A stretch of DNA of 64,000 nt from Methanothermococcus sp. Ax23 (GCF_049075655.1 NZ_CP157522.1:1120001-1184000), one strand, 5' to 3'; positions 487 to 63,822 are shown, numbered from the stretch's first letter. Made by a program: numbers and translations. Notes: generated by a model from the letters alone, not told the origin.

Positions 487-3195
487 TTATTTATTTGGCG
501 GTTTTTTATTATTTAGTAGTTTTACAACTTCCATATAGATAAATGTGGAAAAGGATGCAACTAAACATATTATCCAATCTCTTAATCCAAGTGTAGTAAA
601 TTCAAAAATGCCCCTTAAATATGGAGTGTATAAAATAATCAATGTTATTATGGATATAAAAACTACCGCTAAAATCAATATCTTATTCATCGGAGCTCCG
701 ATTTTAAATACTGATTCATCCAATGACCTAAAATTAAAGGTATTAAATATTACCATTCCTACTATTGTTGTAAAAACCATAGTTCTTGCGTATTCTATAT
801 TTGCTATTGGATTGGAAATAATAAATACCATAAATGCCACAAAAGCCATAAAACTGGCTAATTTTATTACTAAAAAAAAGTTTTTTTTAGCCAATATCTC
901 TTGCCCAATCTTTCTCGGCGGTTTGTTCATGACATCCTTTCTTACGGGGTCCATACCCAATGATATAGCAGGGAGCTCCTCGTCAAATGCATTTATAAAT
1001 AAAATTTGTAAAGGCAACAATGGAAGATAGTTAAAACCGTATATTAGTATGCCTATTGATATAAGGATTACCTCTGTAAAATTCCGGGAAATTAGATAGC
1101 AGGTGAATTTTTCTATATTTTCGTATATATTTCTACCGCTTTTAACTGCCTCCACTATCGTGGCAAAATTATCATCTTGGAGAATCATATCGCTGGATTC
1201 TTTTGCGACATCAGTTCCTTTTATGCCCATGGCTATGCCTATATCTGCCATTTTTAAAGCTGGGGCATCATTAACACCATCACCAGTCATAGCCACAATA
1301 TGACCTTTTCTTTTTAGGGTTTTAACAATCTTTAATTTCTGTTCAGGCATGACTCTTGCGTATATCTCCACAACATCCACAAGAGATTCAAATTCTTTTT
1401 CATCTAATATTTCCAGTTCGTTTCCAGTCATAACTCTTTTGACTGTTTTATTATCATCATTATCATCCAACAACCCAATTTTCTTACCTATTGCCTTTGC
1501 AGTTTCTTCATTATCTCCTGTTATCATTATTACCTTTATGCCTGCTTTTTTACAGGTTTCTATTGCCTCTTTTACTCCTTCTCTTGGCGGGTCAGTCATA
1601 CCAACTAAACCTAAAAAAATTAAATCATTTTCAATTTCATCATCTTTTAACGTATTATACTCATAATAATCTTCATTACAAATTTTTTTATATGCCACGC
1701 CAAGAACACGATAGGATGAGCTCGCCAGTTTGTTATTCATCCCAATTATTTTTTCTATTTCATCGGCATTAATTTCCCATATTCCATTGTCCTTTCGAAG
1801 CGAATCCTTCGGATTCGCTGACTTACGAAAACTCGAAGAGTTTTCGTCAAGTTTGATAAATTTGCATTTTTTTAAAATAACTTCCGGAGCTCCTTTTGAA
1901 AATACGATTAACTCATTATTTACATTATTTACCTCATCTACTTTATGAACTGTTGTCATCAATTTTCTTTCGGAACTAAACGCTATTTCTTTTATTCTCG
2001 GGTATCTTTTCTCCAAATTATCTTTCCATAAATCAGCCTTTGCACCAGCAACGATTAATGCCACCTCTGTTGGGTCTCCAATGGAGTCCCATATTCCATC
2101 GGTTTTCCTAATTACTGCATTGTTGCACAAGGAAACAGCCTTTAACAGTAAAACCAAATTTTCCTGAGTATCTACTTTAATATTCTTATCCTCTATAAAA
2201 AATTTCCCTTCTGGTTCATAGCCCTTTCCAGTTATTTCATAGATTTTGCCATCAACAAAAATTTTTTCCACAGTCATTTCATTTTTTGTTAAAGTGCCTG
2301 TTTTATCGGTGCAAATCACAGTAGTTGAACCAAGGGTTTCTACTGCAAGCATCTTTCTTACAACTGCATTATGCTTTGCCATATTGTGCATGCCCACCGA
2401 TAAGGTAAGGGTTAAAGTGAGTGGAAGCCCCTCGGGAACAGCCGCCACTGCAAGGGCAAGTGCAACCATTAACATCTCAGCAATAGGAGCTCCCATAAGA
2501 ATACCAAATCCAAACACCGCAGAACTGGATAATAATGCAATTAATGCCAATGTTCTTCCCAAATTGTGTATTTTTATTTGAAGTGGTGTTTTTTCTTTTT
2601 CATCTTTTTCAATCATATCTGCGATTTTTCCGAGCTCTGTTCTCATACCAGTATTAATTACAATAGCTTCACATTTTCCCCGCACAATCTGAGTTCCAGC
2701 AAAAATTAAGTCCCCCTTGGATTTTTTTACAGCTTTACTTTCTCCCGTTAGTATTGATTCATCAACCTTAAATTCCCCAATTGTATCTATAATTTTTGCA
2801 TCAGCGGGAATTATATCTCCCATTTCTAAAACAAGAACATCTCCGGGAACAACTTCCCTACTGTATATTTCTCTTAATTCCCCATCCCTTATTACCCGAG
2901 TTTTATATTGAACAAATTTTTTTAAAGATTCCATGGCTTTTTCTGCCTTATACTCCTGAATAAATCCCATGATTATAACAAAAATAATTACAAACAATAT
3001 CATCCAAAAATTAAGCACTTCACCAATAAAAATGGATATAGCCATTGCTACAATAAGCACCCACACTAAGAAATTACTCACAAACTGCCGGATTAAAATA
3101 TTAAGCCATGTTATTCTTTTTTTAGCTTTCAACTCATTGTATCCGTATTTTTCCAATCTCTCCTTAGCTTCCCATTCCGTTAAACCCAATGTCAT
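487..3195 (-). CDS. Cation-transporting P-type ATPase (type II, Ca2+-like), with a 19-aa in-frame hairpin insertion
   Basis: TGES, PEGL, DKTGTLT, KGAPE, MITGD and GDGVNDAPAL motifs; likely start MTLGLTE at 3195. Confidence 0.93.
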   Translation of the reverse strand: MTLGLTEWEAKERLEKYGYNELKAKKRITWLNILIRQFVSNFLVWVLIVAMAISIFIGEVLNFWMILFVIIFVIIMGFIQEYKAEKAMESLKKFVQYKTRVIRDGELREIYSREVVPGDVLVLEMGDIIPADAKIIDTIGEFKVDESILTGESKAVKKSKGDLIFAGTQIVRGKCEAIVINTGMRTELGKIADMIEKDEKEKTPLQIKIHNLGRTLALIALLSSSAVFGFGILMGAPIAEMLMVALALAVAAVPEGLPLTLTLTLSVGMHNMAKHNAVVRKMLAVETLGSTTVICTDKTGTLTKNEMTVEKIFVDGKIYEITGKGYEPEGKFFIEDKNIKVDTQENLVLLLKAVSLCNNAVIRKTDGIWDSIGDPTEVALIVAGAKADLWKDNLEKRYPRIKEIAFSSERKLMTTVHKVDEVNNVNNELIVFSKGAPEVILKKCKFIKLDENSSSFRKSANPKDSLRKDNGIWEINADEIEKIIGMNNKLASSSYRVLGVAYKKICNEDYYEYNTLKDDEIENDLIFLGLVGMTDPPREGVKEAIETCKKAGIKVIMITGDNEETAKAIGKKIGLLDDNDDNKTVKRVMTGNELEILDEKEFESLVDVVEIYARVMPEQKLKIVKTLKRKGHIVAMTGDGVNDAPALKMADIGIAMGIKGTDVAKESSDMILQDDNFATIVEAVKSGRNIYENIEKFTCYLISRNFTEVILISIGILIYGFNYLPLLPLQILFINAFDEELPAISLGMDPVRKDVMNKPPRKIGQEILAKKNFFLVIKLASFMAFVAFMVFIISNPIANIEYARTMVFTTIVGMVIFNTFNFRSLDESVFKIGAPMNKILILAVVFISIITLIILYTPYLRGIFEFTTLGLRDWIICLVASFSTFIYMEVVKLLNNKKPPNK
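1795..1851 (-). repeat. Double-hairpin micro-insertion, in frame in the ATPase (57 bp)
   Basis: GC-rich stems AGCGAATCC-ttc-GGATTCGCT and ACGAAAACTC-gaa-GAGTTTTCGT; near-identical copy at 14568-14625. Confidence 0.85.
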
Positions 3196-3323
3196 TGTAT
3201 CACAAAATATATAATAATAAATAAAAACGGTAGTATGATGATAAAAAATAATAAAATATAAAAATATGGAGTATATGGACATATTTTTAAAATTTATACA
3301 TTATTTATGTTTTTTGAACTAAT

Positions 3324-4433
3324 TTACAATCTACTGTATTTGTAAAATATCCTACAAGTTCCTTCATCAGAAACCATACAGCTTCCAATAGGATTTAATG
3401 GATTGCATGGATTTCCAAATAATTTACAATCGCTGGGTAATTTTTCCCCCCTTAGTATTTCACTACATATGCAACCTTTGTTTATTTTTTCCTCTATTTC
3501 TGGGATATCCTCATGCTCAAATATGTCAAATTTTGCATATTTTTCCCTAAGTTTTAAGCCACCTTCTTTTATAATTGGAAAACCTCTCCAAGCAACATCA
3601 GCAGGTTCAAACACTTCGTTTATCATCTTCTGGGCAACCATGTTTCCTTCTTCCCTAACTGCCCTTTTATACTCGTTTTCAACCTTTGCCGTATTGTTTA
3701 TTATCTGCTTCAAAATCATGGCAATTGATACCAAAACATCAAGGGGTTCAAATCCTGCTACAACCATCGGAGCTCCGTATTTTTCACAAGGTTCATAGTA
3801 TGGTTTTAAACCTGTAATTGTTGAAACATGCCCTGGACATATAAATCCATCTATATTTGTTGTTCCTTGACTAAGCAAAAAGTCCATAACTGGTGGTGTT
3901 TGCCTATGACAGTTCAATATATAGAAGTTTGATTCATTTTTATTACCACTTAATTTATTGTTAAGATGTAGGAGCTCCGCGGCTGTTGTTGGTGCTGTGG
4001 TTTCAAAGCCTATGGCTACAAATACAACTTTTCCCTTATTGTTTTCCTTCTGCTCTTTTGCAAGTTTTACTGCATCCCCTATTCCATATACTATCCTTAC
4101 ATCAGCCCCTTCTGATTGAAGTTGCATCAATGATTTTTTACTTCCGGGAACTCTATACATGTCTCCCAATGTGGTTATTGTGTATCCATTTTCAGCCAAA
4201 TAAATTGCAGTATCTATCTCTTTCTGAGTGGTGACACATACTGGACATCCAGGACCTGGTATAACCGTTATATTTTCAGGAAGAACGTCCCTTATTCCAT
4301 ATTTACAGATGGTATGTTCATGAGAACCGCAGACATGCATTATCTTTACATTGTCATCTATTTTACCTGACAGTTTTTTAATAGTATCTATTGATTTTTT
4401 TATCAAAGTTTTGTCGTTGATGTTTATTGCCAT
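3324..4433 (-). CDS. hypD: Hydrogenase maturation protein HypD
   Basis: MHVCGSHE, GPGCPVC, GFETT, PGHVS and the C-terminal CMVSDEGTC motifs. Confidence 0.97.
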   Translation of the reverse strand: MAININDKTLIKKSIDTIKKLSGKIDDNVKIMHVCGSHEHTICKYGIRDVLPENITVIPGPGCPVCVTTQKEIDTAIYLAENGYTITTLGDMYRVPGSKKSLMQLQSEGADVRIVYGIGDAVKLAKEQKENNKGKVVFVAIGFETTAPTTAAELLHLNNKLSGNKNESNFYILNCHRQTPPVMDFLLSQGTTNIDGFICPGHVSTITGLKPYYEPCEKYGAPMVVAGFEPLDVLVSIAMILKQIINNTAKVENEYKRAVREEGNMVAQKMINEVFEPADVAWRGFPIIKEGGLKLREKYAKFDIFEHEDIPEIEEKINKGCICSEILRGEKLPSDCKLFGNPCNPLNPIGSCMVSDEGTCRIFYKYSRL

Positions 4434-4539
4434 AATATCCCTACTGTTTATATAATATTAATATCTTATTAAAAATAAAATGGTTAATCCTATATAAATT
4501 GTTATTTATAAAATTTATAAAAATGTGAAGGTGAAAATT

Positions 4540-4929
4540 ATGTTCCCAGGAAGGATGAATCCAAGGATGTTAAAACAAATGCAGAAGATGATGAAAGATT
4601 TTGGAATGGATGCTGAGGATTTAAAAGCGGTGAAGGTAACAATCGAGTTAGAGGACAAAATACTTGTGTTTGAAAAGCCAAAGGTTCAATTAATGGATAT
4701 GATGGGGACCAAAACATACTCCATAACAGGAAAGGCTAAAAAGATTAAGAAAGAAACAGAGGAAAAACCAGAAGAGAAAATAAAGGATGAAGAAGTTAAA
4801 TTAGATATCACTGATGAAGATATTGAAATGGTAATGAATCAGTGCAATGTTTCAAAAGAAGAGGCTAAAAAGGCATTGGAAGAATGCAACGGAGATATAG
4901 CTGAGGCGATTTTAAAACTAAGTGAATAA
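4540..4929 (+). CDS. nac: Nascent polypeptide-associated complex protein
   Basis: MFPGRMNPR start, NAC domain, C-terminal UBA-like GDIAEAIL. Confidence 0.92.
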   Translation: MFPGRMNPRMLKQMQKMMKDFGMDAEDLKAVKVTIELEDKILVFEKPKVQLMDMMGTKTYSITGKAKKIKKETEEKPEEKIKDEEVKLDITDEDIEMVMNQCNVSKEEAKKALEECNGDIAEAILKLSE

Positions 4930-5010
4930 ATTTATTGAATTTTAAATTATAAATTATTAAACTTATTTTTTTACGATAAACCGCCGAGAAAGCCAACGAT
5001 TTTAATCGTT

Positions 5011-5047
5011 ATACAAAACATAGTTTTGTAAAATCTCTTACGAGATT
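5011..5047. repeat. Double-hairpin insertion (37 bp) within the left-end hairpin
   Basis: TACAAAAC-ata-GTTTTGTA plus AATCTC-ttac-GAGATT; removal restores CCAACGATTTTAATCGTTGG. Confidence 0.7.
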
Positions 5048-5373
5048 GGATGAGAGGCGCACATCATTTTTTTTATATACTCCACTACATAATATATGAG
5101 TGTAATTAGAATAATAGCATATATATAAATTTGGTGAATTCCATGCAAGTAACCAGAGTGCTGACAATAAACCTAACCAGAAGTTTAAATAATGAACAAT
5201 TAATAATCATAAACCATTTAACCTATTCAGCATCAAAACTCTGGAATACATCCAACTACGAAGTAATACAGCGAAACATTAAACCAAATAAAATAGATGT
5301 TCAAATGAAGAACAACTTCTGGTTTAAAAACCTGCACTCACAGTCAGCACAGGCAGTATGTCAAAAACTTCAA

Positions 5374-5420
5374 ATTAGACGAAAACCTTCGGTTTTCGTT
5401 GCTCGCTTGCTACGCAAGCG
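5374..5420 (+). repeat. Double-hairpin micro-insertion, frameshifting tnpB (47 bp)
   Basis: ATTAGA-CGAAAACC ttc GGTTTTCG-TTGC-TCGCTTGC tac GCAAGCG(A). Confidence 0.88.
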
Positions 5421-5813
5421 ATTGCATGGCAAAACTACTTCAAACAACACACTAAAAGACCACGATACCAACCAAAAGATGGACACTTTCCCGTAAAATG
5501 GAAGAAGCAAGGTTTCAAAATCATAGGCAATAAGTTAAGATTATCCTTATCTAAACAAACTAAAAACTATCTCAAAGAGAAGCATGGTATCAAGTGCAGG
5601 TATCTATGGGTAGGGTTATCGAAAACTCTACCGCTTGATACCATGCAGGTTAAAGAAGTTGAGATAGTTCCGCAGACCATCTATGGGATAACCTACTACA
5701 TACTTCACTTAATCCATAAGAAACCAGTAATTCAAGAACCTATCAAAGAAGGTAATATATTAAGTATTGATTTAGGAATTAAGAATTTAGCAACAGCAAT
5801 AACAAACACAGGT

Positions 5814-5861
5814 ATCAGGCGAAAACCTTCGGTTTTCGCTACTCACCAACATCAGTTGGTG
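5814..5861 (+). repeat. Double-hairpin micro-insertion, in frame in tnpB (48 bp, IRRKPSVFATHQHQLV)
   Basis: ATCAG-GCGAAAACC ttc GGTTTTCGC-TAC-TCACCAAC atca GTTGGTG(A). Confidence 0.85.
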
Positions 5862-6550
5862 AAAGCAGTAATCTACGATGGAAGAAGGTTAATTTCTAAA
5901 TTCCGATGGTTTGCTAAAACAAAGGGGAAAATACAGTCTGCACTAACAAAACAGGAGTTAAAGAATAACAAAAGATTATCACACTTAACAGTAAAGGAGA
6001 AAAACTACACTAAGGATTATCTTCATAAGGTCAGTAAGATGATTGTTGATTTTGCAGTAGATAATAAAGTTTCAAGGATTGTAATCGGCGAGTTAAACAA
6101 AGGTATTTCAAATATTAATATTGGTAGAAAGAACAACGAGAAAATACACAAGATACCTTTTGGTAGGTTAGTAAGTATGATACAGTATAAAGCAGAGGAA
6201 AGGGGATTAACAGTAGAACAGGTTAATGAATCTTATACTTCTCAAACTTGTAGTAATTGTGGTGTGGTTAAAAAGAGTAATAGGAAGTATAGGGGTTTGT
6301 ATGTGTGTAGTGAGTGTGGTATGGTTTTGAATGCTGATATTAACGGGGCTTTGAATATTTTAAAAAAAGTATTTTCATGTAGCGTAGCCCTGAACCCGTT
6401 AATGGGTAGGGGTAGTGGGCTTGGCAACCCATGTAGGGTTAGACCCTGCTAAAGAACCCCACGATTTTAATCGTGGGAGTATGTCAGGTTATTAAAAATT
6501 TAAATAAAAATTTAGATAATTTATAACATGCTGAATTATCGGTGAAAAAA

Positions 6551-8098: not shown

Positions 8099-8124
8099 GT
8101 CAAATAATAAAACATGGTGATAAT

Positions 8125-14625: not shown

Positions 14626-15160
14626 TTCTACAAAAAAATCCTTTGAAGTATCTGAGCTCAGAAAAGCATGTGAAAAATACAATGTAAAGCATCTTTCATT
14701 TGAAAACGATGAAGTTATAAAAACAAAAATACTAAATAGTGAAATAACACTTCCAAAAACCGTTGTAGATAGTGATTTGATAATAAATCTCCCAAAATTA
14801 AAAACCCACATACTTATGAAATACACTGGGGCAGTTAAAAACCTATATGGATGTATTCCCGGTGGATTGAAGCCAAAACTTCATGGTGTCTATCCAAAGG
14901 AAAATGATTTTGCAAAGTTATTGGTAGAGCTCCACAACACCATAATAAAAGATAAAGAAACAATTACCATAATGGATGGAATCTATGGGATGGAAGGAAA
15001 TGGACCAAGCAATGGAAAACCTATAAATTCAAAAATAGTAATTGCCTCAAAAAGTTCTGTTGCTGTTGATTTATTTGCATCCTATTACATAGGATACAAT
15101 CCCAACGATATTTTAACATATAGGTTTTTAGATGATGGTGTTGAGTATGAACTCATACAT

Positions 15161-15536
15161 CTGACCTACTCCAACGAGTGAACTCGTTGGGTTCTCGCTT
15201 ACGGTAGTAAGCGAGCAACGAAATCACGAAGTGATTTCGTCTAATTTTAGTAGGGTTTAACCCTACACGGGTGGCCAAGCCCACTACCCCTATCTCCGTT
15301 TAGGAGATTCAGGGCTACCTTTTGAATTTCCAAACACTACCAGCGGTAGAGTTTTCGATAACCCTACCCATAGATACTTGGACTGGTAGCGTTACTTACT
15401 ACTAATCTTCACATATTTATATTTTACTACTTACTAGCCGATATAATGTCCCGCCTCTCATCCAATCTCATAAGAGATTTTACAAAACTATGTTTTGTAT
15501 AACGATTAAAATCGTTGGCTTTCTCGGCGGTTTATC
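15161..15536 (-). mobile_element. Non-autonomous IS605-derived element (376 bp, subfamily B)
   Basis: Near-identical to 26844-27219; excision restores the host frame CAT|GTA AAT, which fixes the ends and the TTTAC target. Confidence 0.93.
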
Positions 15537-15572
15537 GTAAATAACAATAAAACCGAAAAAATCTCAAAATTA

Positions 15573-26748: not shown

Positions 26749-26843
26749 TGTTTTACCTTTCTTTATTATATGTTTGTTTAAATATATTTATACATCCATT
26801 ACTTTGAAAATAAACTTATCAACAATTAAAAACTAGATTTTAC

Positions 26844-27219
26844 GATAAACCGCCGAGAAAGCCAACGATTTTAATCGTTATACAAAACATAGTTTTGTAA
26901 AATCTCTTACGAGATTGGATGAGAGGCGGGACATTATATCGGCTAGTAAGTAGTAAAATATAAATATGTGAAGATTAGTAGTAAGTAACGCTACCAGTCC
27001 AAGTATCTATGGGTAGGGTTATCGAAAACTCTACCGCTGGTAGTGTTTGGAAATTCAAAAGGTAGCCCTGAATCTCCTAAACGGAGATAGGGGTAGTGGG
27101 CTTGGCCACCCGTGTAGGGTTAAACCCTACTAAAATTAGACGAAATCACTTCGTGATTTCGTTGCTCGCTTACTACCGTAAGCGAGAACCCAACGAGTTC
27201 ACTCGTTGGAGTAGGTCAG
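26844..27219 (+). mobile_element. Non-autonomous IS605-derived element (376 bp, subfamily B)
   Basis: TTTAC|GATAAACCGCC...GTAGGTCAG; internal TATA at 26955-26966. Confidence 0.93.
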
Positions 27220-27240
27220 ATTTATATATTAAAATTATAA
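26986..27240 (+). ncRNA. Predicted omegaRNA/reRNA-like transcript of the MITE (scaffold plus flanking guide)
   Basis: Begins ~20-25 nt after AAAATATAAATA; multiple covarying stems; ends in the IS605 right-end hairpin. Expression is inferred, not shown. Confidence 0.55.
27135..27185 (+). repeat. Double-hairpin element nested in the MITE right end
   Basis: ATTAGA-CGAAATCAC ttc GTGATTTCG-TTGC-TCGCTTAC tacc GTAAGCGA; absent at the matching site of the full element (CTAAA|GAACCC). Confidence 0.88.
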
Positions 27241-37410: not shown

Positions 37411-37455
37411 AGAATTAATTTAATAATTATCATTATATTATTTATGGTGAAACAC

Positions 37456-42215: not shown

Positions 42216-42384
42216 AATAGTTTAATTTAAGGTTAGCCATACAATTAATTCTTTATTTTGTGTTTATATTTTTTTAGTTTATTCTTTTTCTATTTTGTAT
42301 TCGTTGAATCAAGTATAATAACGGTTTTAATTAAATATTATGCTTTTGTAGTGTTTCCCCCCACTATGGTCTGATTTTAACTTC

Positions 42385-43539
42385 CTGACAGTGTGAATTA
42401 ACAATACCATCTTTAAAATCAAAAAATAGAAATAGGTAGTAGTTAAATATCTCATTAAAAAACGGTGAATTCAGCATGCTAAAGACATTAAGTAATATGC
42501 TCACTAATTCTATAAATAGTTTAGGATTTAACTGTTCGGAAGAATTATCTAAGTTTGCATTGGTTAGAACGTTAACGCCGATAAAAACTATTAAAGCATT
42601 TTCAGAAAGTATTTCAAAAATCCACAGAACAACTATCGTTAAAAACTTGCAAAAACTCTTCGAAGAAGAGTTTTACTTATACGCTCAATTATTAAACCTT
42701 CCCGACATTTTGAATGACAATAGATTTAAATACGCTGCAATAATCGATTCAACATTATTAAGAAGATGGAGTGAAAATATTTATGGTTGTAGTATTAGAT
42801 ACAATTACATCGAAAATCATAGCAAACTATATCAAGAGCAAATAAACTGCTGTATCTATCACAAAAAAAAGGGCTTTATACTATTCACACTACGATAAAA
42901 CCACTCGACAAAAAATCCACAAACATATTTATTGAAATCATTGAATTTTTATCTCAAACTAACATCAGGACGGTTATAGGGGACAGTTTTATCACAACAA
43001 AGAAAATTCTAAAGGGATGTAAGGGATTGGGAATCGAATACATTGGCAAACTTAGGAAAAACATTATAATCGAGTTTTTCAGTAAGAAGGTTAAAGTGGA
43101 AGAATTGTTCGAAAAGGATTTTCAAAAAAGAAAGTTCAAATTAAGGACGATTAATGGAATAGAGTTCAAATTATCCGATAGGATTGTGAATATTCCAAAT
43201 GTTGGCAAGGTTAAAATCGTTGCTGTGCAAATGGAAAATCAGAAAAAACCTAAGTATTTAGTCTCTACAAACTATAAAAAGAAGGCAGAGAACATTATAA
43301 TCGAGTATATGAAGAGACCAAAGATAGAAGAAAAACATAAAAGGGATAAATCGATTTTAGAAGTTGAAGGGAATTACATAACTTCTGAAAAGAGTAATAT
43401 TGGATTCATTAGATTTATGGCGGTAGTATCAAACTGCATCGAATACTTAAGCTACAACTATGGATTATCGTTTTATGAAATCGTTAAAAAGTGTGGTAAA
43501 GAACTAATAAAGAAAGGAATATCATAATCACACTGTCAG
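42385..43539 (+). mobile_element. IS4-superfamily (IS701/ISH3-like) DDE insertion sequence
   Basis: TIRs CTGACAGTGTGA(A)TTA, 7-bp TSD TAACTTC, transposase IIDST..IGDS..Y-x2-R-x3-E-x6-K. Confidence 0.9.
42476..43527 (+). CDS. DDE transposase in two frames joined by a -1 shift at A_AAA_AAG (42863-42871)
   Basis: The -1 frame is open from the A8 run through to ORF 43027-43527. Confidence 0.75.
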
Positions 43540-46293
43540 TAACTTCAAATACAGTGAGTTCCGCAGTCTCAACAGTAAGTAGCTATTTCCATCCCACTAT
43601 GGTCTGATTTTAACGATATTATGGCATTTAGTTTTAAAGAGATAATCGACTATTTCCATCCCACTATGGTCTGATTTTAACATCCCTGCCTTGATTGTCA
43701 CTATAATATTTACATATATATTTCCATCCCACTATGGTCTGATTTTAACGCTTTTCTTACGAATCCTTTTTTATCCTCTAATGTCATTTCCATCCCACTA
43801 TGGTCTGATTTTAACCCAAGATGTCGTAAAATCATTGAATAAGAAAAAAATAATTTCCATCCCACTATGGTCTGATTTTAACAATTCTTCATCATTTCTT
43901 TTTAGTATTAATTTATATTCTTCCCAATTTCCATCCCACTATGGTCTGATTTTAACTTTTTTTATAAACCTTTTTAGGCGGTTTTTATGACATGTGGAAA
44001 ATTTCCATCCCACTATGGTCTGATTTTAACGGAACTGGCAAGCCAAGGGATAAAGTGCCCTATCCAAATTTCCATCCCACTATGGTCTGATTTTAACTTC
44101 AACTGATAATGTATAAGTGCTACCTTTTGAGCTATTTCCATCCCACTATGGTCTGATTTTAACGCAGAAAAATACGCTGAAAGGGTTATGGATTATGATT
44201 TCCATCCCACTATGGTCTGATTTTAACTTCGACACAATGGCTGTCGAGATGTTTAAAACTGCATTTCCATCCCACTATGGTCTGATTTTAACACTGTAAT
44301 ATATGACGTCTCAGGAAATAACTTTAAATTTCCATCCCACCATGGTCTGATTTTAACGTATATATGTCAGTATTGCACAAAATATTATACAATTTCCATC
44401 CCACTATGGTCTGATTTTAACAATTTTTCAAATTCTTCTTCTGCTGTTTTTCTGTCAGATTTCCATCCCACTATGGTCTGATTTTAACCAGAAACTATAT
44501 TATAGAGTATATAGAATTTGAAATTTCCATCCCACTATGGTCTGATTTTAACAGCTCAATAGCGAAATTAATGACTTTATTGAATACTATTTCCATCCCA
44601 CTATGGTCTGATTTTAACCTCATTATACTCCAAGTCTTTAAATTCATAAATTAATTTCCATCCCACTATGGTCTGATTTTAACTAATATGATACAGCGAG
44701 AATACATAGAAAACGCAATAAATTTCCATCCCACTATGGTCTGATTTTAACTGATTCCGACACAGTAGATTCATACGCTGTGGGAGATGATTTCCATCCC
44801 ACTATGGTCTGATTTTAACATGTATTTATCATATGTCGCAACAATATCAAAGAAAGCATTTCCATCCCACCATGGTCTGATTTTAACTTCGTTTTTAATG
44901 TTTCGTATGACTCGTTATAGCAAACATTTCCATCCCACTATGGTCTGATTTTAACTTTGAGATAGCATAGAATATACCGCCACCTATTAACAATTTCCAT
45001 CCCACTATGGTCTGATTTTAACATATTTCCTGATATGTTGTTCTGTATGTTCTTTTTAATTTCCATCCCACTATGGTCTGATTTTAACTAAAGAAGTTGC
45101 AAATAAATATGGTATGAGTTATATGATTTCCATCCCACTATGGTCTGATTTTAACCTTTTAGGAGCTCCCGCACAATCCTTTTTCGAATTAGATTTCCAT
45201 CCCACTATGGTCTGATTTTAACGAACCGTTAAGCTTTCCAGCCGATTATATGGCAATAGAATTTCCATCCCACTATGGTCTGATTTTAACCTCATTATAC
45301 TCCAAGTCTTTAAATTCATAAATTAATTTCCATCCCACTATGGTCTGATTTTAACTAATATGATACAGCGAGAATACATAGAAAACGCAATAAATTTCCA
45401 TCCCACTATGGTCTGATTTTAACCTAAATAAAATGTTTTTAATGGTGTTAAATCAACATTTCCATCCCACTATGGTCTGATTTTAACGTTGAAAAATGCA
45501 TTATAGAACCGAAAGGAATAACAATTTCCATCCCACTATGGTCTGATTTTAACGAGACCATTTCCAGCATTCACTTGTAGGCGGTTGTTAGATTTCCATC
45601 CCACTATGGTCTGATTTTAACGAAGAAGAGATTCAAAGAATTAAAAAAATCTTAGATTTCCATCCCACTATGGTCTGATTTTAACAGCATTTACATCAAG
45701 AAGTTGTAAAAAGATATTAGAATTTCCATCCCACTATGGTCTGATTTTAACAGCATTTACATCAAGAAGTTGTAAAAAGATATTAGAATTTCCATCCCAC
45801 TATGGTCTGATTTTAACATCTGACCCAGTATGGAAGTAGGCGGTAGGTCCAGGAAGATTTCCATCCCACTATGGTCTGATTTTAACTTCATACGCACGGT
45901 TCTTAAAGAAGATGAGGGTATAAAATTTCCATCCCACTATGGTCTGATTTTAACAAAAAATAAAATTATATGGGTAATAGATAGATTTTCATATTTCCAT
46001 CCCACTATGGTCTGATTTTAACCCCAGAAATGCACGAATACAACACGATACCAACTCCTGATTTCCATCCCACTATGGTCTGATTTTAACATCATGAATG
46101 TAATAAAGGAGACTTTTTAATCGGATTTCCATCCCACTATGGTCTGATTTTAACAAATATCACCTTTGCATATTATACTAATACATAATAATATATTTCC
46201 ATCCCACTATGGTCTGATTTTAACCATAAACATCTTTTTCTTTATCCTTGATAAAATCAATATATTTCCATCCCACTATGGTCTGATTTTAAC

Positions 46294-53511: not shown

Positions 53512-53532
53512 AATATAATTAAATTAAAATAA

Positions 53533-54461
53533 TAGTATGGGTCAAAATATATAACCTATACTAAATATAATATTATAAAAAAGACGATATTATGAAGGCT
53601 GAGGAAGTGGTAAATAAGATAATTACATCAGATTTAATTAATAGAATCCCTAAACGAAGAAAGGTAGGGAGGAAAGGATATAATTTAGAGTTGAGGCTTA
53701 AACTATTAGTGTATGCCTTTTTAAAAGGCATACACTCAAATAGAGCGTTAGTATTACACTTACAAAATAATCCTCAGATTTTAAAAACATTGGGATTTAA
53801 ATCTTGTCCTGGTAGGAGAACCATCGATAGATGGAAAAAATCCCTTGATGAAGAATTGCATGCAATAATTACTTTATTAGGTGATAAATATATTGAACTG
53901 AATAATCCTGAATGGTCAATATATGATAGTACTCCAATAAGGGATGAAATGGACAAAGATGGAAAAATAGGATACAATAGTGAAGGGATATTCAAAGGCT
54001 TTAAATTACACTTAGCAGTGGATAAGCGAGGAATACCATTGAGAGCAGAATTTACCGCGGCAAATACTCATGACGTTAAAGTGGCTGATAAATTGTTAGT
54101 ATCTACCAAAAAATCCTGCGCAGATGCGGGCTATGATTCAAAAGATTTAAAAAAAAGCTAAGGAGTTATACCAAAACGAACTAATAACTGCCCATAATCC
54201 ACGGAGATTAGGTAAGAAAAACAAAAAGAAACTTCCGAAAGAAGTCTCTAAGATAAGAGTTAAAATAGAACATACCAATTCGATATTAAAGAATAGATTT
54301 ATGAATAAGTATTGGACAAATGTTAAGGGTTATGTTCGTAAAAAAATATTCTGCTTCTGTGCAGTGGCTTCTGCACAGGTTTTAGCATTATATAATCTAA
54401 TTACCAGAGGTTATCCTTATATGAAAGTCTTAGAGGTTAGGGTGTAATATGACCCACACTA
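53533..54461 (+). mobile_element. IS5-like DDE insertion sequence
   Basis: TIRs TAGT(A/G)TGGGTCA; flanking direct repeat AATTAAAATAA (AT-rich, length uncertain). Confidence 0.85.
53592..54447 (+). pseudogene. IS5-like transposase, frameshifted at an A8 run (54149-54156)
   Basis: YDST, GFKLHLAVD and ADAGY motifs; the +1 frame continues through R..IE to the stop at 54447. Confidence 0.8.
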
Positions 54462-54622
54462 AATTAAAATAAATATAAATAGCATAAATATAAATTAAAA
54501 TTATGTTAAAATTAAATAAAATAAAAAACTTAAATGAAATGAATAAAAAGTAAAATAAAAAGTAAAAAACTTAAAATAAATAACCAAAATAATCTAAAAA
54601 ACAAAACTAAAAAAGTGAGACT

Positions 54623-55962: not shown

Positions 55963-55967
55963 AAAAA

Positions 55968-57251: not shown

Positions 57252-57427
57252 ATAATCCCCTCTTTTACTTTTTAACCTATCAGTATATATCTATCTATAT
57301 CTATTATTATATATTGTGTGGTTATCATATAATTACATAGCGGTTTAAAACTATATTGTGTTATATTTATATACCATTTAATATCAAAAATGGTATTTAT
57401 GAAAATTTTAAACGAGAAAGTGAAATC

Positions 57428-60400
57428 ATGACTGATTTGATAATCTGTGAGAAACCAAATGTGGCAAAAAAAATAGCAAATGCACTGGGGAATCCTAAAA
57501 AGAAATCAGACAACGGAGTTCCATACTACGAATTGGAAAGGAATGGAAAAAAAATAATCGTTGCATCTGCTGTTGGACATTTATTTACATTGGAAGAAGT
57601 AAAAACCGATAAAAAGAAAAAATTTGGAGAATATCCTGTTTTTGACATACGATGGGCTCCTGCTTCAACTATAAAGGGGAAAGAATATGTTCAAAAATAT
57701 ATAAACACGCTGAAAAAACTTGCAAAAGAAGCTGATGAGTTTTACATAGCATCAGACTGGGATATTGAAGGAGAATTAATTGGTTATCATGCACTATATT
57801 ACTGTTGCGGAAAAAAAGATGCAAAAAGAATGAGATTTTCAAGTTTAACTAAAAATGAAATTGTTAAAGCATACGAGAATCCCGATAAAATAGATTTCGG
57901 GCTTGTTGATGCGGGGGATAGCAGGCATAAGGTAGATTGGTATTATGGTATAAATGTTTCAAGAGCTCTGATGCAGTCCATAAGGGCAGTCAATAGATGG
58001 CAGACAATGAGCACAGGTAGGGTTCAAGGTCCTGCACTATCATTTTTAGTTGATAGGGAGCTGGAAATAAGAAAGTTTGTCCCAACACCATACTGGGTAA
58101 TCGGAGCTCTCTTAAAGGACGAAATAACGGCAATTCATGAAAAGGATAAATTTTGGGATGAAAAGGAAGCTAATGAAATTTACAATAAAATAAAGGGTGA
58201 AAAAGAGGCAGTAGTTTCAAGTGTTAAAAAAACTAAGAAAAAGATAAAACCAAATCCACCATTTGATTTGGGGACATTGCAAAGGGAAGCACATAGGGCA
58301 TTTAGATTCTCACCAAAAAAGACGCAGGAGATTGCACAGAAACTTTATGAGCAAGGATTATGCCTTCATCCTGATACATTAGTAGCACTACCAAATGGAA
58401 TTAAAAAAATCAAGGATTTGGATGAAAAAGGGGAAGTTTTATGTTTAGATGATGATTTAAAATTAACAAAATCCAGATATAAACTTTTAAAAAGGACTGT
58501 AAAAGAAAAATTAATAAAAATTACATTAAATGATGGAACTGAGCTCATCACAACAAAAGAACATCCAGTTTTGGTATATAGGGATGGATTAATATTTGTC
58601 CCTTCCGAGGAACTAAAAGAAAACGAACAGACAATAATGTTTATAAATATTTCCGAAAAAAGATTTAATTCTAAACTACAAAAATCAAAGATTTTCGAAT
58701 CCAGTAGGAAAACTAAATTTATTGATTTTATATTGGAAAATTTAAATGGCGATAAGGATTACATTCTTATAGAACCATCGCTCACAAAAAAGATTCAAAA
58801 ATTAATAGCAAGTGATAAATCAAGAAAACAAATTATGGAGATATTTGGAATTAAAGAACCGACATACTATAAATATTTAAGGACAGGAAAAATACCAATA
58901 AAGATTATAAAATACTTAATTGATAAAGATGTTATTTCAAAAAAAGACATAGAAAGTAATTATTTAGGATTTTGCTATGGAACTTCCACAATTCCCGTAA
59001 ATATTGAATTCACCAATGATTTTTGGTATCTTTATGGGTATGTCATTGGAGATGGGCATTTGGCGAATAAGGGGAAGATAACAATACCTGCAAAGGACAG
59101 GAGTAGGGAAAAAGAAATAATAAACGCTATAATACAATCATGCGAAAGTCTTAACTTAAATTGGAGATATGATAAATACAAGGTAATACACATATCTTCA
59201 AAATCACTAACAAGGATTTTTGAAGTATTGGGCTGTCCATATGGAAACAAAACGGAGATATTCGATATTCCAAATATTGTGTTTGAAGATGTTAATTATA
59301 TTGCATCACTATTGGCGGGATACTATGATGCTGATGGACATTTTAGCATTAAAAAAACAGGATGTAATAACAACTCACCACAAATAAAACTAACATCAAA
59401 AAATATAAATGTTTTGAGGAAAATAAAAAACATATTGCAGTTTTTAGGAATCGGCGGATATATATGGACAAAGAGAAATAATACTGGAGAAATTGAAGGA
59501 CACGACTTAAATATATATTCAAAAGATGCAGGTAAGTTTTATGATTTAATGATAAATCATATCAGAGTTAAAAGAGATGAATTACAAAAAGTTAAAGAAT
59601 TATCCATTAGGGATTATAAAAAATACTCTCATCATTACAGCATTATTTATGCAAATTGGGAAAATAAATTTAAATCAGGAATAATACAAAAATTCAATTT
59701 ATCAAACCAAGTTTCAAAAAATAAAGGGTTAAGTTTAAACAAATTAAGGGAACTTTCTGAATATTTAACAGATAACGATTTAAAAAGGATATCGAAAGGC
59801 GATGTGTATATATCAAAAATTAAAGAAATTAAAGAAATTGAATATGAGGGTGAAGTCTATGACTTAACAGTTGAAACATATCATAATTTCATAGCAAATG
59901 GGGTAATTGTCCATAACTGTTCATATCCAAGAACAAGCTCTCAAAAACTTCCAAAGGATGAAAATTACATAAAGGATATTTTAACTAAAATTTTAAAACA
60001 TGGGGATTATAAAAAATATGCCGAGCTCATTTTAAATGAAAATAGGAAGCCAATAGAAGGTAAAAAAAGCGACCCTGCACACCCTGCAATACACTTTGTA
60101 GATATTCCAAAAGAGCCGCTGGCTGATGACGAGAAAAAATTATACGATTTAATTGTAAGAAGAACATTAGCAACCTTTTGGGATGATGCAGAAAGGGAAT
60201 ATATCAATGTAGTATTGAACATTGGCGGTGAAAACTTTAAACTCAGCGGTTCAAGAACTGTAAAAGAAGGATGGCATGAGATATATTACTTCACAAAGTT
60301 TGATGAAAAGGAGCTCCCAAGTTTAAGAAAAAACAATAAAATACCTGTTGAAAAGATAACCATTGAAAGAAAGGAAACAAAACCACCTAAAAGATATACA

Positions 60401-63004
60401 ATGGCATCAATTATAAAGGAGTTGGAAAATAGACAGTTGGGGACAAAATGTTTAACTTCTGATACACTAATTAAGGTCAAGATTAACGATAAAATTGAAA
60501 ATTTAAAAATTGGAGAATTATTTGAAATGCTAAACGAGAAATTTTGCAAAAATAATGTTGAATTTGCCACCAACAATAATAAAATTAAATGTATCTCATA
60601 TAATGAAAATGGAAACATTGTAGAAAGTGAATTTGAATTCATTAGTAGAAGAAAATTATGTGATAATGAAAGAGTTTATAAAATTGAATTTAATGATGGC
60701 AGTTATATTGAAGCTACTGACGAACATCCAATTTTAATATACGATAATAAAGAGCATATTAAATATGTTAGAACCAAAGATTTAGATAAGGGGATGAAGT
60801 GCATATATTCAATAAAATACTCTGATAAAGAAGGAAAAATATTTTGTAATTGGGATGAATTTGTTGAAAAATGCAATGAAAAATCAAAGTTATACGGTTT
60901 AACTGATGAAGTTAAGGATTTAAGAGAAAAATTAAACCTATCAAAACATAAGTTTTCAGAGAGATTTGGAATTAGTTATACTCAAACTTGGAAATATGAA
61001 GAAAATAAAAGAGTTCCGTTGTATTTGTTTAATCGATTAGGGCTGAAAAAGCCAAAATATATAACTTCTACAAACCCAAAACTATCAATTAAAAACCCAT
61101 TTCCATTAGGATATTCAAGTTCATTGATTAGAATTATATCTCATTTAGTAGGGGATGGCTCTATCTATAAAAAAGGAATAACAAAGGAGAATGTTTATGA
61201 TTTTAGATACCACAACACAGATATGGATTTAATTACTCAGTTCGTTGATGATGTGGAAAATGTATTTGGTATTAGATTAACCGTTAAAAAAGCAAAACCT
61301 AAATTGGTAAAAAATAAAACAAGATACTGCAAAGAAAAATATTATGTGCAAATCCCAGCAGTAGTTGGAAGAGTGCTTGCAATACTATTTCCTGAAATTG
61401 TCAATAAGAATGCCCCTAAGTTCCCAAAAGAATTCTATCCAGAATACATTGGAGCGTTGTTTGATGATGAAGGATGCGTAGTTGAGAATGAATGCAAATT
61501 GTTTATATCAAATACAAATTTTGATTTGTTAGAAGATATTAAAAAGATGCTGTTAGAATTAGGCATCGAATCAAGACTTGATAAAAATCAATTTAAACTA
61601 TATATTAAAGGAAGAAAAAATACTCAGAAGTTTTTAAATAAAATACCATTCATTTCAGTTGATAAAAAACAGAAGTTAATTAATGCACTATCTAATAAAT
61701 ACGCTGGAAGCGATGAAAAGAATTCGATTGTATGGAAAGAAAAATCCATAATAGCGGCATTGGGACACAATGAAATGGGACTAACTTCAAAAGAAATAAG
61801 AGATATTGCTAATATATCTGATTCAATTATTGGAGATTATTTGAGAGAATTAATTAACAATGGAATTGTGGAGAAAATTACCGTTGGTATTAGCGAATAT
61901 CCCAGAAAAAAAATTATCTACAAATGTAAATTAAATCCTAATGATTTATTTTATAAATACATTGGTGAAAAAGTCATAAATAAGGACTTTATTACAAAAA
62001 CAATATCAAACATTGAAATTATTGACTATAATGGATATGTTTATGACATAGTAAATTCAAAGTATTCAAATTTTATAGCAAATGGCATTGTGGTTCATAA
62101 CTCAACCAGAGCCGACATTGTAGAAAAACTTGTAAAAAGAGGATATTTAATCGATGACGGCTCATTAAAAGTGACTGATTTAGGAATAGCAGTAATTGAA
62201 ACCCTTAAAAAATACTGCCCTGAAATAATCGATGAGCAGATGACAAGAGAGCTGGAAAAGAAACTGGATAGATTGCAGAAAGGAACTATAAAAAAAGAGA
62301 CCGTTTTAAAAGATGCTGAAAATAAGTTAAGGGCGATACTTGAAGAGGTTAAAAAGAAGGAAAAAGAGATTGGAAAGGAACTGGTGGAAAAGATAGATGC
62401 AACAAACAAATCTTTAAAAACTGTTGGTAAGTGCGAATGTGGCGGGGATTTGATAATAATCAGGACAAAAGGCAAAAAAAGATTTATAGGATGCACAAAC
62501 TATCCAGAATGCACAAAAACTTATCCATTACCTCAGAAGGGAAGAATAAAGGTTTTAAATGAAACCTGTGAAGTTTGCGGAGCTCCGGTGATAAGCATAG
62601 ATAAACAGAAAGTTTGTATAAATCCAGAATGTCCTTCAAAAATATCCAGTGAAGAGAAAAAAGAAATAGAAAAAGCTGAAAAAGCTGAAAAAACCTGTCC
62701 AAAATGTGGTGGAAAGCTAATAATTAAAAAAGGAATTTATGGCGTATTTTTAGGTTGTGAAAATTATCCAAAGTGTAGATATACGGAAAAGCTGAACGGT
62801 AAAAATGAAGCTGAAAAACATGAAAAAGTAATAGTAGGTAAATGTCCTGACTGCGGCGGAGATTTAATAATAAGGAAGGGAAGATTTGGGGAATTTATAG
62901 GATGTTCCAATTACCCAAAGTGCAGGCATACTGAAAAAATCAAAAAGAACGATGATAATAAAGAGAAGAAAGGGAAGAAAGAAAAAGAGGAGAATAAAAA
63001 ATAA
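57428..63004 (+). CDS. topA: Type IA DNA topoisomerase with two inteins
   Basis: TOPRIM motifs CEKP and DWDIEGE, GRVQ, catalytic SYPRT, GTxSTR, C-terminal zinc ribbons. Confidence 0.96.
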   Translation: MTDLIICEKPNVAKKIANALGNPKKKSDNGVPYYELERNGKKIIVASAVGHLFTLEEVKTDKKKKFGEYPVFDIRWAPASTIKGKEYVQKYINTLKKLAKEADEFYIASDWDIEGELIGYHALYYCCGKKDAKRMRFSSLTKNEIVKAYENPDKIDFGLVDAGDSRHKVDWYYGINVSRALMQSIRAVNRWQTMSTGRVQGPALSFLVDRELEIRKFVPTPYWVIGALLKDEITAIHEKDKFWDEKEANEIYNKIKGEKEAVVSSVKKTKKKIKPNPPFDLGTLQREAHRAFRFSPKKTQEIAQKLYEQGLCLHPDTLVALPNGIKKIKDLDEKGEVLCLDDDLKLTKSRYKLLKRTVKEKLIKITLNDGTELITTKEHPVLVYRDGLIFVPSEELKENEQTIMFINISEKRFNSKLQKSKIFESSRKTKFIDFILENLNGDKDYILIEPSLTKKIQKLIASDKSRKQIMEIFGIKEPTYYKYLRTGKIPIKIIKYLIDKDVISKKDIESNYLGFCYGTSTIPVNIEFTNDFWYLYGYVIGDGHLANKGKITIPAKDRSREKEIINAIIQSCESLNLNWRYDKYKVIHISSKSLTRIFEVLGCPYGNKTEIFDIPNIVFEDVNYIASLLAGYYDADGHFSIKKTGCNNNSPQIKLTSKNINVLRKIKNILQFLGIGGYIWTKRNNTGEIEGHDLNIYSKDAGKFYDLMINHIRVKRDELQKVKELSIRDYKKYSHHYSIIYANWENKFKSGIIQKFNLSNQVSKNKGLSLNKLRELSEYLTDNDLKRISKGDVYISKIKEIKEIEYEGEVYDLTVETYHNFIANGVIVHNCSYPRTSSQKLPKDENYIKDILTKILKHGDYKKYAELILNENRKPIEGKKSDPAHPAIHFVDIPKEPLADDEKKLYDLIVRRTLATFWDDAEREYINVVLNIGGENFKLSGSRTVKEGWHEIYYFTKFDEKELPSLRKNNKIPVEKITIERKETKPPKRYTMASIIKELENRQLGTKCLTSDTLIKVKINDKIENLKIGELFEMLNEKFCKNNVEFATNNNKIKCISYNENGNIVESEFEFISRRKLCDNERVYKIEFNDGSYIEATDEHPILIYDNKEHIKYVRTKDLDKGMKCIYSIKYSDKEGKIFCNWDEFVEKCNEKSKLYGLTDEVKDLREKLNLSKHKFSERFGISYTQTWKYEENKRVPLYLFNRLGLKKPKYITSTNPKLSIKNPFPLGYSSSLIRIISHLVGDGSIYKKGITKENVYDFRYHNTDMDLITQFVDDVENVFGIRLTVKKAKPKLVKNKTRYCKEKYYVQIPAVVGRVLAILFPEIVNKNAPKFPKEFYPEYIGALFDDEGCVVENECKLFISNTNFDLLEDIKKMLLELGIESRLDKNQFKLYIKGRKNTQKFLNKIPFISVDKKQKLINALSNKYAGSDEKNSIVWKEKSIIAALGHNEMGLTSKEIRDIANISDSIIGDYLRELINNGIVEKITVGISEYPRKKIIYKCKLNPNDLFYKYIGEKVINKDFITKTISNIEIIDYNGYVYDIVNSKYSNFIANGIVVHNSTRADIVEKLVKRGYLIDDGSLKVTDLGIAVIETLKKYCPEIIDEQMTRELEKKLDRLQKGTIKKETVLKDAENKLRAILEEVKKKEKEIGKELVEKIDATNKSLKTVGKCECGGDLIIIRTKGKKRFIGCTNYPECTKTYPLPQKGRIKVLNETCEVCGAPVISIDKQKVCINPECPSKISSEEKKEIEKAEKAEKTCPKCGGKLIIKKGIYGVFLGCENYPKCRYTEKLNGKNEAEKHEKVIVGKCPDCGGDLIIRKGRFGEFIGCSNYPKCRHTEKIKKNDDNKEKKGKKEKEENKK
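58361..59917 (+). mobile_element. Intein 1 (519 aa) with LAGLIDADG endonuclease
   Basis: Starts CLHPDT, T..HP block B, YVIGDG/YYDADG, ends VHN before Cys. Confidence 0.95.
60449..62101 (+). mobile_element. Intein 2 (551 aa) with LAGLIDADG and HTH-like segments
   Basis: Starts CLTSDT, TDEHP, LVGDG/LFDDEG, ends VHN before Ser. Confidence 0.95.
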
Positions 63005-63077
63005 AAAAGAAGAATAAAATAATTTGCTATTTTTTGTAAGTTATTATTTTTTTAGTTGATATTTTAAATAAATTTTT

Positions 63078-63174
63078 ATTTCCATCCCACTATGGTCTGA
63101 TTTTAACTTTTCAATGCTTTTACAAACCAATCAAAGTCATCTTTATTTCCATCCCACTATGGTCTGATTTTAAC
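63078..63174 (-). CRISPR. Mini CRISPR array (2 repeats, one 37-bp spacer)
   Basis: Two perfect copies of the same 30-bp repeat followed by the leader. Confidence 0.93.
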
Positions 63175-63420
63175 AGTTTAAAATATTCCTTATTTTACAC
63201 TAAATACCTTTGCATTTCTTCTATTTAAAACTTTCGAGTCTCGAATCACAATGATTTTTAGAGTATATATAGTTTTAAGATGATTTACGACAGGTAATTT
63301 ACAAATGTTTAAAGAAATAAATGGTATTATATCCATATTTTTTAAAAATTTAAAAAATTCACAAGGAAAAACTTAAAACAGCCAAAGATACGGCATACCT
63401 AATAAAAATCCCTATAAATT
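63175..63420 (-). promoter_or_regulatory. CRISPR leader, paralog of 46294-46540
   Basis: First ~75 nt identical to the long-array leader, similar beyond. Confidence 0.85.
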
Positions 63421-63822
63421 ATTAAATTTAAATAAATAAAATAATATTAAAAAAGCATCAATCCGAGATTACATATTAATCCTTAAAATAACAAATAATA
63501 AACATAAAATCAATAAAATCAAAAATAAGATTATTTGCCAAGGATAAATACTAATTTAAGAAATTCTAACTATTCCAAAGAACCGTGAAATCCCCCATCT
63601 CCCATCTTCAAAACCATATTTTATAACTAAAATCTAATCAGTAGTAGAGCTCCTACAATCATATTTAATCTAAGTATAAATTGTGAAAAACTTATTAGTT
63701 TTTTATTTTCTATTATCAATATTTTTATACAATAAAAAACAAATTATAAAAGTAAATATGTTATTAATACTAATGTTCATAATAATGACACATACAAAAA
63801 TATATAAAAAGAGGATGATAAT

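Follow-up and report, generated by a model that had tools for sequence, protein, structure and literature searches.

The 64,000-nucleotide stretch analysed here (the window) lies on the chromosome of the archaeon Methanothermococcus sp. Ax23 (GCF_049075655.1 NZ_CP157522.1:1120001-1184000) and contains 83 exact copies of the palindrome GAGCTC, from position 693 to position 63647, or one per 771 bp. A first reading of this DNA, made from the letters alone (the sequence-only reading), had counted at least 80 sites, about one per 0.8 kb, where 4 to 5 would be expected in 64 kb, and had likened the word to HIP1, a highly iterated palindrome (HIP) of cyanobacteria. Both figures stand: 100 dinucleotide-preserving shuffles of the window gave a mean of 4.27 copies and a largest count of 9, and none reached 83. 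The sites and the mobile or intervening elements among which they lie are as follows, in window positions.

693-698 to 63647-63652: first and last of the 83 GAGCTC copies (palindromic) in the site list
4958-6506, + strand: tnpB-type element, 9 other copies by self-blastn, OrfB_IS605 and Cas12f1-like_TNB domains; 0 sites
5643-6452: TnpB open reading frame (ORF) within the tnpB-type element
14654-14659: non-coding GAGCTC; the other non-coding copies, by our own ORF set, start at 45163, 46733, 54970, 55051, and 63647
15154-15563 and 26825-27240: two copies of a repeat resembling a miniature inverted-repeat transposable element (MITE), with about 30 other copies; 0 sites
42375-43542: insertion sequence (IS) fragment, 4 other copies, piece of an ISC1217-type transposase; 0 sites
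53513-54498, + strand: IS fragment, 8 other copies, DDE_Tnp_1 transposase; 0 sites
57356-63004: topoisomerase I gene (1,882 amino acids, aa) with two LAGLIDADG inteins
58379-59917, + strand: intein 1, by blastp to the orthologues in two relatives (G010 and G013) and Pfam intein and LAGLIDADG matches; 1 site, at 58541
60479-62101, + strand: intein 2, by blastp to the same orthologues; 0 sites

Abundance, specificity and placement of GAGCTC

The iterated palindrome proposed for the window is confirmed, and extends to the whole genome (G000), which consists of a chromosome of 1,662,948 bp (C1, of which the window is C1:1120001-1184000) and a plasmid of 7,732 bp, at 31.9% G+C. There are 2,089 copies in 1.67 Mb, 2,085 of them chromosomal and 4 on the plasmid (7.7 kb, 27% G+C). 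This is 16.7 times the expectation from composition, 19.7 times that of an order-1 and 13.1 times that of an order-2 Markov model, and when all 6-mers are compared GAGCTC is the most over-represented in the genome. The word is also sharply delimited. In the matrix of NAGCTN words GAGCTC has 2,085 copies and the remaining 15 have 126-325 each, and words one letter away from it are not enriched at all; a bias at the level of AGCT, which the sequence-only reading had named as a way in which it might fail, therefore does not account for the excess. Flanking preference is weak, with a G before and a C after the word in 38% of sites, while 16% are the octamer GGAGCTCC.

A short palindrome found throughout a genome, far above expectation and at about one per kilobase, is the signature of a HIP-type word; a resident restriction-modification (R-M) system should instead lead to avoidance of its site in the host, and GAGCTC is in 17-fold excess. 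Many other palindromic hexamers in this genome are strongly avoided relative to a maximum-order Markov model, including CTGCAG (18 observed, 361 expected), GTGCAC (7, 135), GTTAAC (22, 309), CTTAAG (20, 193), and CTCGAG (8, 51), as is every hexamer containing GATC or CTAG. Such avoidance suggests that restriction pressure has acted for a long time.

The sequence-only reading had placed sites in all three codon phases and between genes, and this holds in the window (44 in phase 0, 24 in phase 1, 9 in phase 2, and 6 non-coding, by our own ORFs) as in the genome, where our rough ORF calls (1,602 ORFs, 86% coding) give 1,101 in phase 0 (GAG-CTC), 628 in phase 1 (nGA-GCT-Cnn), 224 in phase 2 (nnG-AGC-TCn), and 132 non-coding. 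Phase 0, which encodes Glu-Leu, contributes 56% of the coding sites. Codon usage does not produce this: shuffling synonymous codons within genes leaves 189 sites where 1,954 are observed, and GAG-CTC encodes 1,101 of 3,959 Glu-Leu pairs, compared to 67 expected. The other two phases exceed even a dicodon-preserving expectation, which itself soaks up part of the signal (phase 1, 190.5 expected and 629 observed; phase 2, 57.4 and 224), so that the proposed codon-preserving and dicodon-preserving controls both leave the enrichment in place. Where two silent choices let the protein carry GAGCTC, its use is near saturation: it encodes 70 of 71 Gly-Ala-His (G-A-H) tripeptides, 129 of 132 G-A-P, 46 of 50 G-A-Q, 34 of 37 R-A-P, and 31 of 33 R-A-Q. 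Odds ratios relative to codon usage range across peptide contexts from 13 to about 550.

Non-coding DNA (225.6 kb, 24.9% G+C) has 132 sites, compared to 4.5 expected from an order-1 model or 7.7 from composition, an enrichment of 17- to 30-fold, which matches that in genes, and GAGCTC is the only palindromic hexamer enriched there. No extended motif was found around these sites. A link to promoters was also rejected, as TATA-like words at a distance of 5-7 bp are only slightly in excess (16, compared to about 6).

Along the chromosome the sites are spread about as independent events would be. Bins of 50 kb contain 49-78 sites (mean 62.7, standard deviation (SD) 7.4), spacing is near Poisson, and the dispersion index per core gene, given silent opportunities, is 0.92, compared to 1.00 ± 0.05 in simulations. 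Long genes without a site number 46, compared to 56.2 ± 6.0 simulated; as this is less than 2 SD from independence, regular spacing or selection for coverage was rejected.

Mobile DNA is different. The sequence-only reading had seen no sites in the tnpB element, the MITEs, either IS, or the second intein, and one in the first intein, all of which proved correct, and the contrast holds genome-wide: DNA with three or more further copies (50.6 kb by self-blastn, 35.8% G+C) has no sites at all, and density is 0.15/kb in DNA with at least one further copy and 1.33/kb in unique DNA. Scarcity in mobile or recently acquired DNA is a further property of HIP-type words. The topoisomerase I exteins (aa 25-341, 855-1041, and 1583-1865; about 2.4 kb) have five sites. 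RtcB in this genome also bears an intein.

Two other regions stand out on the chromosome. The stretch C1:1198434-1203718, around the Mod gene of a type III R-M pair (Mod 700 aa, Res 959 aa; C1:1199347-1204361, immediately after the SMC gene), lacks GAGCTC and was probably acquired recently. An 11-kb block with nine ORFs (C1:113848-124945) is likewise site-free, and is followed at C1:124945-126495 by ten sites in 1.5 kb, in the spacers of small nucleotidyltransferase- or antitoxin-like ORFs. Several of these read cgGAGCTCC, followed a few bases on by a TATA-like box. The cluster was considered as a possible replication origin, and rejected as being this array of small ORFs.

Relatives, turnover and the octamer dialect

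GAGCTC is abundant in five of the 40 species genomes available for this phylum-level grouping, to which a phylum-wide count added none: G000 (2,089 sites), G003 (1,321), G010 (1,645), G012 (2,070), and G013 (1,515). The others have 4-229 each. Within the window's genus, four genomes are near expectation (94-115 sites) and four are strongly depleted (G002, 16; G005, 14; G007, 4; G008, 9), while G001, an assembly 64% complete, has 43. In G005 there is one GAGCTC in 400 kb, none of 460 orthologous G000 sites is kept, and no other iterated palindrome has taken its place (maximum ratio 3.4). A search by synteny for genes missing from G005 yielded 11 ORFs, of which the four viewed by eye looked housekeeping-like. 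The four depleted genomes look as if a GAGCTC-specific restriction system were acting on them; since many palindromes are avoided in these genomes, this avoidance of GAGCTC may be partly coincidence.

In a tree of one protein (the C-terminal half of CarB), the eight poor or depleted genomes form one well-supported clade, G001 having no usable match. The five rich genomes surround this clade, and their monophyly is rejected (approximately unbiased test, p-AU 0.013), for what is a single gene, a group defined after the tree was seen, and an odd placement of G010. The gene itself, for the large chain of carbamoyl-phosphate synthase, is split in the window (35971-39270) into adjacent ORFs of 479 and 608 aa, and is fused in G014 and G028, with a matching frame of about 1,080 aa. 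Between 27001 and 37000 in the window, 49-88% of sampled 31-mers occur in public runs (three coded organisms; vent and subsurface metagenomes), and close strains therefore exist.

One of the rich genomes has a dialect. In G010, 1,259 of the 1,645 sites are GGAGCTCC, with 317 in 400 kb compared to 0.6 expected, and a further C is favoured one base out; the share of GGAGCTCC in the other four is 13-16%. Even in the other family the octamer is somewhat elevated, at 16-35 copies compared to 0-4 of the reversed word.

Orthologues, identified as our own reciprocal best hits and aligned codon by codon, allow sites to be followed between species (pairs with G000: G012, 238 at first and later 891, covering 1.2 Mb; G010, 314; G013, 290; G005, 315). 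At conserved Glu-Leu pairs, 170 of 198 G000 sites are kept in G012 (0.859), 49 of 146 in G013 (0.336), and 56 of 154 in G010 (0.364), where the retention of GAG and of CTC elsewhere predicts 0.111, 0.056, and 0.033, respectively. Conservation is thus beyond the neutral expectation, as it is for HIP-type words. The four-fold sites of G013 and G010 are only 50-52% identical to those of G000, and silent sites are near saturation; 64-66% of GAGCTC sites are not shared, at equal density in the rich species, and new sites appear where G000 has none at frequencies of 0.05-0.16. Equal densities with so many unshared and new sites argue for continuing turnover, not a relic.

The direction of change was examined in the comparison with G012, restricted to single steps with the other five letters intact in both genomes, with the same codon changes elsewhere as controls. 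Synonymous exchanges number 82 compared to 15.6 expected when counted per neighbouring word (5.3-fold), and compared to 1,733 when counted per site (0.047-fold). A second tally gave 87 synonymous steps compared to 14.8 (5.9-fold), and 47 amino-acid-changing steps compared to 4.0 (11.7-fold). Near-words become GAGCTC at five to six times the control rate, and a GAGCTC is lost at 0.05 of it. A first, context-free look, in which gain seemed normal and loss low, is superseded by this context-matched comparison. The bias covers transitions, transversions (CTA or CTG to CTC), and A:T positions (GGG to GGA, GCC to GCT).

Its strength suffices to alter proteins, and permissive tripeptides are more frequent in the rich genomes. 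Gly-Ala-Pro tripeptides occur at 0.14 per 1000 residues in the depleted G005, at 0.25-0.33 in G013, G000, and G012, and at 0.82 in G010, three to six times above the other four genomes compared. Glu-Leu pairs written with GAGCTC are conserved to the same degree as other Glu-Leu pairs.

Search for a methyltransferase

A word of the HIP1 type would be expected to come with a DNA methyltransferase specific for it, or for its core, wherever it abounds. G000 encodes several DNA methyltransferases (a type II-like N6_N4 enzyme, an Eco57I-type, two type IIG, one type I, and one type III) and no C5 methyltransferase, and none of the five Pfam families searched (PF01555, PF00145, PF02384, PF07669, PF02086) has a member common to the five rich genomes. 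G010 has a single PF01555 candidate. In G012 there are two type I subunits, a type IIG enzyme on a plasmid, and a D12-class enzyme that is missing from G000, G010, and G013, with no other type II-like candidate.

Two enzymes of G000 were considered as causes. The N6_N4 methyltransferase (300 aa) is convergent with a 245-aa ORF without a Pfam match (C1:1437541-1439159), and the two are probably a mobile type II R-M pair. G000 has the pair, as do G003, in broken form, and seven other-family genomes with ordinary GAGCTC counts; G010, G012, and G013 lack it, and on these grounds it was rejected. The Eco57I-type methyltransferase (567 aa) was rejected as well, since it was found in no genome other than G000 and G003. 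Its start is overlapped by a 293-aa ORF that has no convincing Pfam match (both within C1:62687-65253), and the two may be a second R-M pair.

The sequence-only reading had suggested looking for a methyltransferase with a Vsr- or Mig-like partner. This suggestion is not borne out: none of the methyltransferase families searched has a shared member, Vsr was found in none of 41 genomes (a positive control hit in three), and the exchange bias extends beyond T:G mismatches. A search of the same genomes for the Pfam family RE_SacI also gave no match, but its control was silent everywhere too, as was that of a search for MT-A70.

Published methylation data contain no trace of the word as far as they go. 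For Methanococcus aeolicus PL15/Hp, a member of the same order that may or may not be HIP-rich, the available part of a single-molecule real-time (SMRT) methylome report gives N4-methylcytosine (m4C) in CTAG, N6-methyladenine (m6A) in GTNAC, GCACY, and CGAG, and, by inference, 5-methylcytosine (m5C) in ACGT, with no GAGCTC among them (PMC10113651). Nor does GAGCTC appear among the entries available from a REBASE survey that covered 519 archaeal genomes and tabulated them in a supplement.

Possible explanations and their meaning

There is a preference, at the level of DNA, for intact GAGCTC; it is specific for the hexamer, active, and common to five species, with one dialect. The suggestion that a host process creates or keeps the sites is supported by these properties, by the sparing of mobile DNA, and by a retention against G012 roughly 20 times that of the same codons elsewhere. 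The force would be a bias in fixation, scaled at about 3-6 in strength and exerted either as drive or as weak selection; neither lesion-specific repair, nor mere protection from mutation, nor codon or dipeptide usage appears to fit. The reading proposed here, to which we give an even chance, takes GAGCTC as a true highly iterated palindrome in this lineage, read whole by a sequence-specific host factor, such that alleles with the intact word are preferentially fixed and retained.

As to mechanism, the most likely, though it falls somewhat short of an even chance, is that GAGCTC marks self DNA for a step of recombination or DNA transfer. The host factor would be a dimeric DNA reader, as sharp as a restriction enzyme at all six positions, and the step could be uptake, the handling of DNA that is broken or enters from outside, or gene conversion between the many copies of the chromosome, Methanococcales being polyploid. 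Copies bearing the word would be passed on more often, and so would accumulate, in a manner analogous to that of the uptake signal sequences (USS) and DNA uptake sequences (DUS) of bacteria and to the role proposed for HIP1 in cyanobacteria.

The USS of Pasteurellaceae and the DUS of Neisseriaceae occur at about one per kilobase and accumulate by preferential transmission of the alleles that bear them; within genes they occupy every frame, to some detriment of the proteins, and they form dialects between related lineages. GAGCTC resembles them as an over-represented word at about one per kilobase with a lineage dialect, in every frame and with an effect on proteins, and would accumulate in the same way. 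It differs in being a palindrome of 6-8 bp without a preference for terminators, whereas USS and DUS are asymmetric, 9-12 nt long, and often placed as inverted pairs in terminators; they also need ComP-type receptors together with ComEC and DprA, the latter two of which were not found in the HIP-rich genomes.

HIP1 (GCGATCGC) and the alternate HIPs of cyanobacteria are, like GAGCTC, short G+C-rich palindromes at about one per kilobase, in all frames and between genes, scarce in foreign and mobile DNA, conserved beyond neutral expectation, and with lineage-specific variants, so that the likeness drawn by the sequence-only reading is apt for the anatomy. GAGCTC differs in being archaeal, and a hexamer (an octamer in one species). 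The abundance of HIP1 tracks methyltransferases that recognise it, whereas the five GAGCTC-rich genomes have none in common in the families searched, and HIP1 spacing is quasi-periodic where that of GAGCTC is Poisson-like. The function of HIP1 is debated; according to the available part of a recent paper, it is now proposed to be a DNA-uptake sequence (Rodriguez-Cruz et al., 2026, PMC13756078). The treatment of HIP1 by Elhai (2015, PMC4390886), as far as its text was available, concerns cyanobacteria alone. A full-text search, which covered few subscription journals, found no report of iterated GAGCTC or GGAGCTCC in archaea.

A fuller and more tentative account, which we think possible but rather less probable than its absence, is that GAGCTC is the first archaeal self-recognition word of the USS, DUS, and HIP1 kind: a protein other than a methyltransferase would favour its transmission during DNA transfer or gene conversion between chromosome copies, the specificity of that protein would have drifted to GGAGCTCC, with a further C favoured beyond it, in one species to give dialects, the drive would rewrite proteins, and restriction or avoidance of the word in the sister clade could make a two-way barrier to gene flow.

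Several points weigh against the reading proposed here. No recogniser is identified among the families searched. ComEC (PF03772) was found in none of 41 genomes, although this is a weak test given how poorly the uptake machinery of archaea is known; DprA (PF02481) was not found in the HIP-rich genomes, being present in G019 only and weakly in G040; and a UvrD/AddA-type helicase occurs in G000 (C1:1537863-1538786; a 774-aa frame, about 775 aa), G010, G013, and a single distant genome from the other family, G012 and G003 being without it. With the competence families missing and the helicase patchy, there is no gene to support either an uptake or a Chi-like reading. Unlike DUS, the word is no commoner in convergent (terminator) spacers, with 17 sites in 32.7 kb, than in spacers of other types. 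There may be a methyltransferase from an unrecognised family, or an m5C-type or other modification. The pattern expected from weak direct selection is also the one expected from a transmission drive, and the two are indistinguishable on these data. Only G000 is complete in the comparisons, G012 being 72% covered and G010, G013, and G005 about 25% each. The gain and loss figures share one set of unpolarised pairwise differences, assume a near-equilibrium, and depend on home-made ORFs and reciprocal best hits.

The first alternative to preferential transmission is direct weak selection for protein-binding sites throughout the chromosome, serving as a Chi-like signal to tame end resection, as a self marker protecting from a host nuclease, or as sites for a nucleoid protein. 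It is unlikely, if the least so of the alternatives. Coverage is even and near-Poisson, with slightly fewer site-free genes than simulated (46, compared to 56.2 ± 6.0), although this evenness is below 2 SD; the plasmid carries sites too, a scaled advantage of 3-6 would account for the pattern of rates, and the resection gene nurA lies in the window, as would be expected for archaea generally. Nucleoid proteins and regulators, however, are rarely so sharp at six positions, with one-off words unenriched, and no candidate protein was found. Chi, the signal of RecBCD and AddAB, is also a short word over-represented chromosome-wide, through which the cell tells its own DNA from foreign, but it is asymmetric, co-oriented with replication, and in modest excess. 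GAGCTC has no strand- or origin-related structure, which a palindrome cannot have, and the AddA/UvrD-type helicase is not common to the five rich genomes, G012 and G003 lacking it.

As a second alternative, methylation-directed repair (Elhai's model for HIP1) supposes that a methyltransferase marks GAGCTC, and that mismatch or very-short-patch repair restores the word and converts near-words to it. The match in anatomy to HIP1 favours it, as do the sharpness at six positions, which is typical of R-M enzymes, and the sister-clade depletion to 4-16 sites, as if GAGCTC were restricted there; the Eco57I-type methyltransferase is common to G000 and G003. As the model is set out in the available text, such repair could in principle bias all mismatch types in the site (PMC4390886). 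The known cases of repair bias, Dcm/Vsr and Mig, raise the methyltransferase's word and lower its T-containing neighbours, but have small effects and act on T:G mismatches only, and the bias of GAGCTC is equal at transversions and A:T positions, which T:G-specific repair would not give; a C5 enzyme in G000 and Vsr in any of the 41 genomes are both lacking. Five methyltransferase families without a shared member, and the absence of the word from the motifs given for M. aeolicus PL15/Hp (a strain whose HIP status is not established) and from the entries of the REBASE survey, also count against it. A SacI-type R-M system, for its part, would have the same word and the same sharpness, and the 4-16 copies in four relatives are its usual signature, but it predicts avoidance in place of a 17-fold excess. 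Methylation is the least supported of the serious candidates, and we consider it doubtful.

It is very improbable, as a third alternative, that GAGCTC is merely a mutational cold spot, whose decay (e.g., by cytosine deamination) is held back by a modification or a bound protein while copies build up passively. Loss per site at about 0.05 of the control is near the inverse of the 17-fold excess, as this would require, but context-matched neighbours also become GAGCTC 5.3-5.9 times faster (82 compared to 15.6, and 87 compared to 14.8), A:T positions and transversions are protected as well, and amino-acid-changing steps are enriched 11.7-fold. Lastly, a by-product of codon, dipeptide, or AGCT-level composition, or the decaying relic of an extinct process, is refuted despite the 56% share of Glu-Leu in coding sites and the mildly raised GGAGCTCC of the other family (16-35 compared to 0-4 reversed), by the 17- to 30-fold non-coding enrichment, the excess in every phase over synonymous and dicodon-preserving expectations, the NAGCTN matrix, and an equal density in five species with 64-66% of sites unshared, which means that sites are still being made.

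Iterated words of this kind have been described in cyanobacteria, as HIP1, and in bacteria with natural competence, as USS and DUS. The present case is unusually clean, with a sharp six-letter word at the same density and at mostly different sites in five species, and has further assets in the octamer dialect, the near-saturated permissive tripeptides, and a measurable replacement of amino acids. As no cognate methyltransferase was found, the phenomenon is separated from the methylation model that dominates thinking about HIP1. It gives a direct handle on a DNA-recognition step of recombination, transfer, or repair in archaea, and allows biased gene conversion to be measured in polyploid archaea. 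In practical terms, enzymes of the SacI family would cut the DNA of these species at intervals of about 0.8 kb, provided that the sites are unmodified, and segments acquired recently can readily be recognised there by their lack of GAGCTC. If it is true that a sister clade restricts the same word, neighbouring vent methanogens could be separated by a two-way barrier to gene flow.

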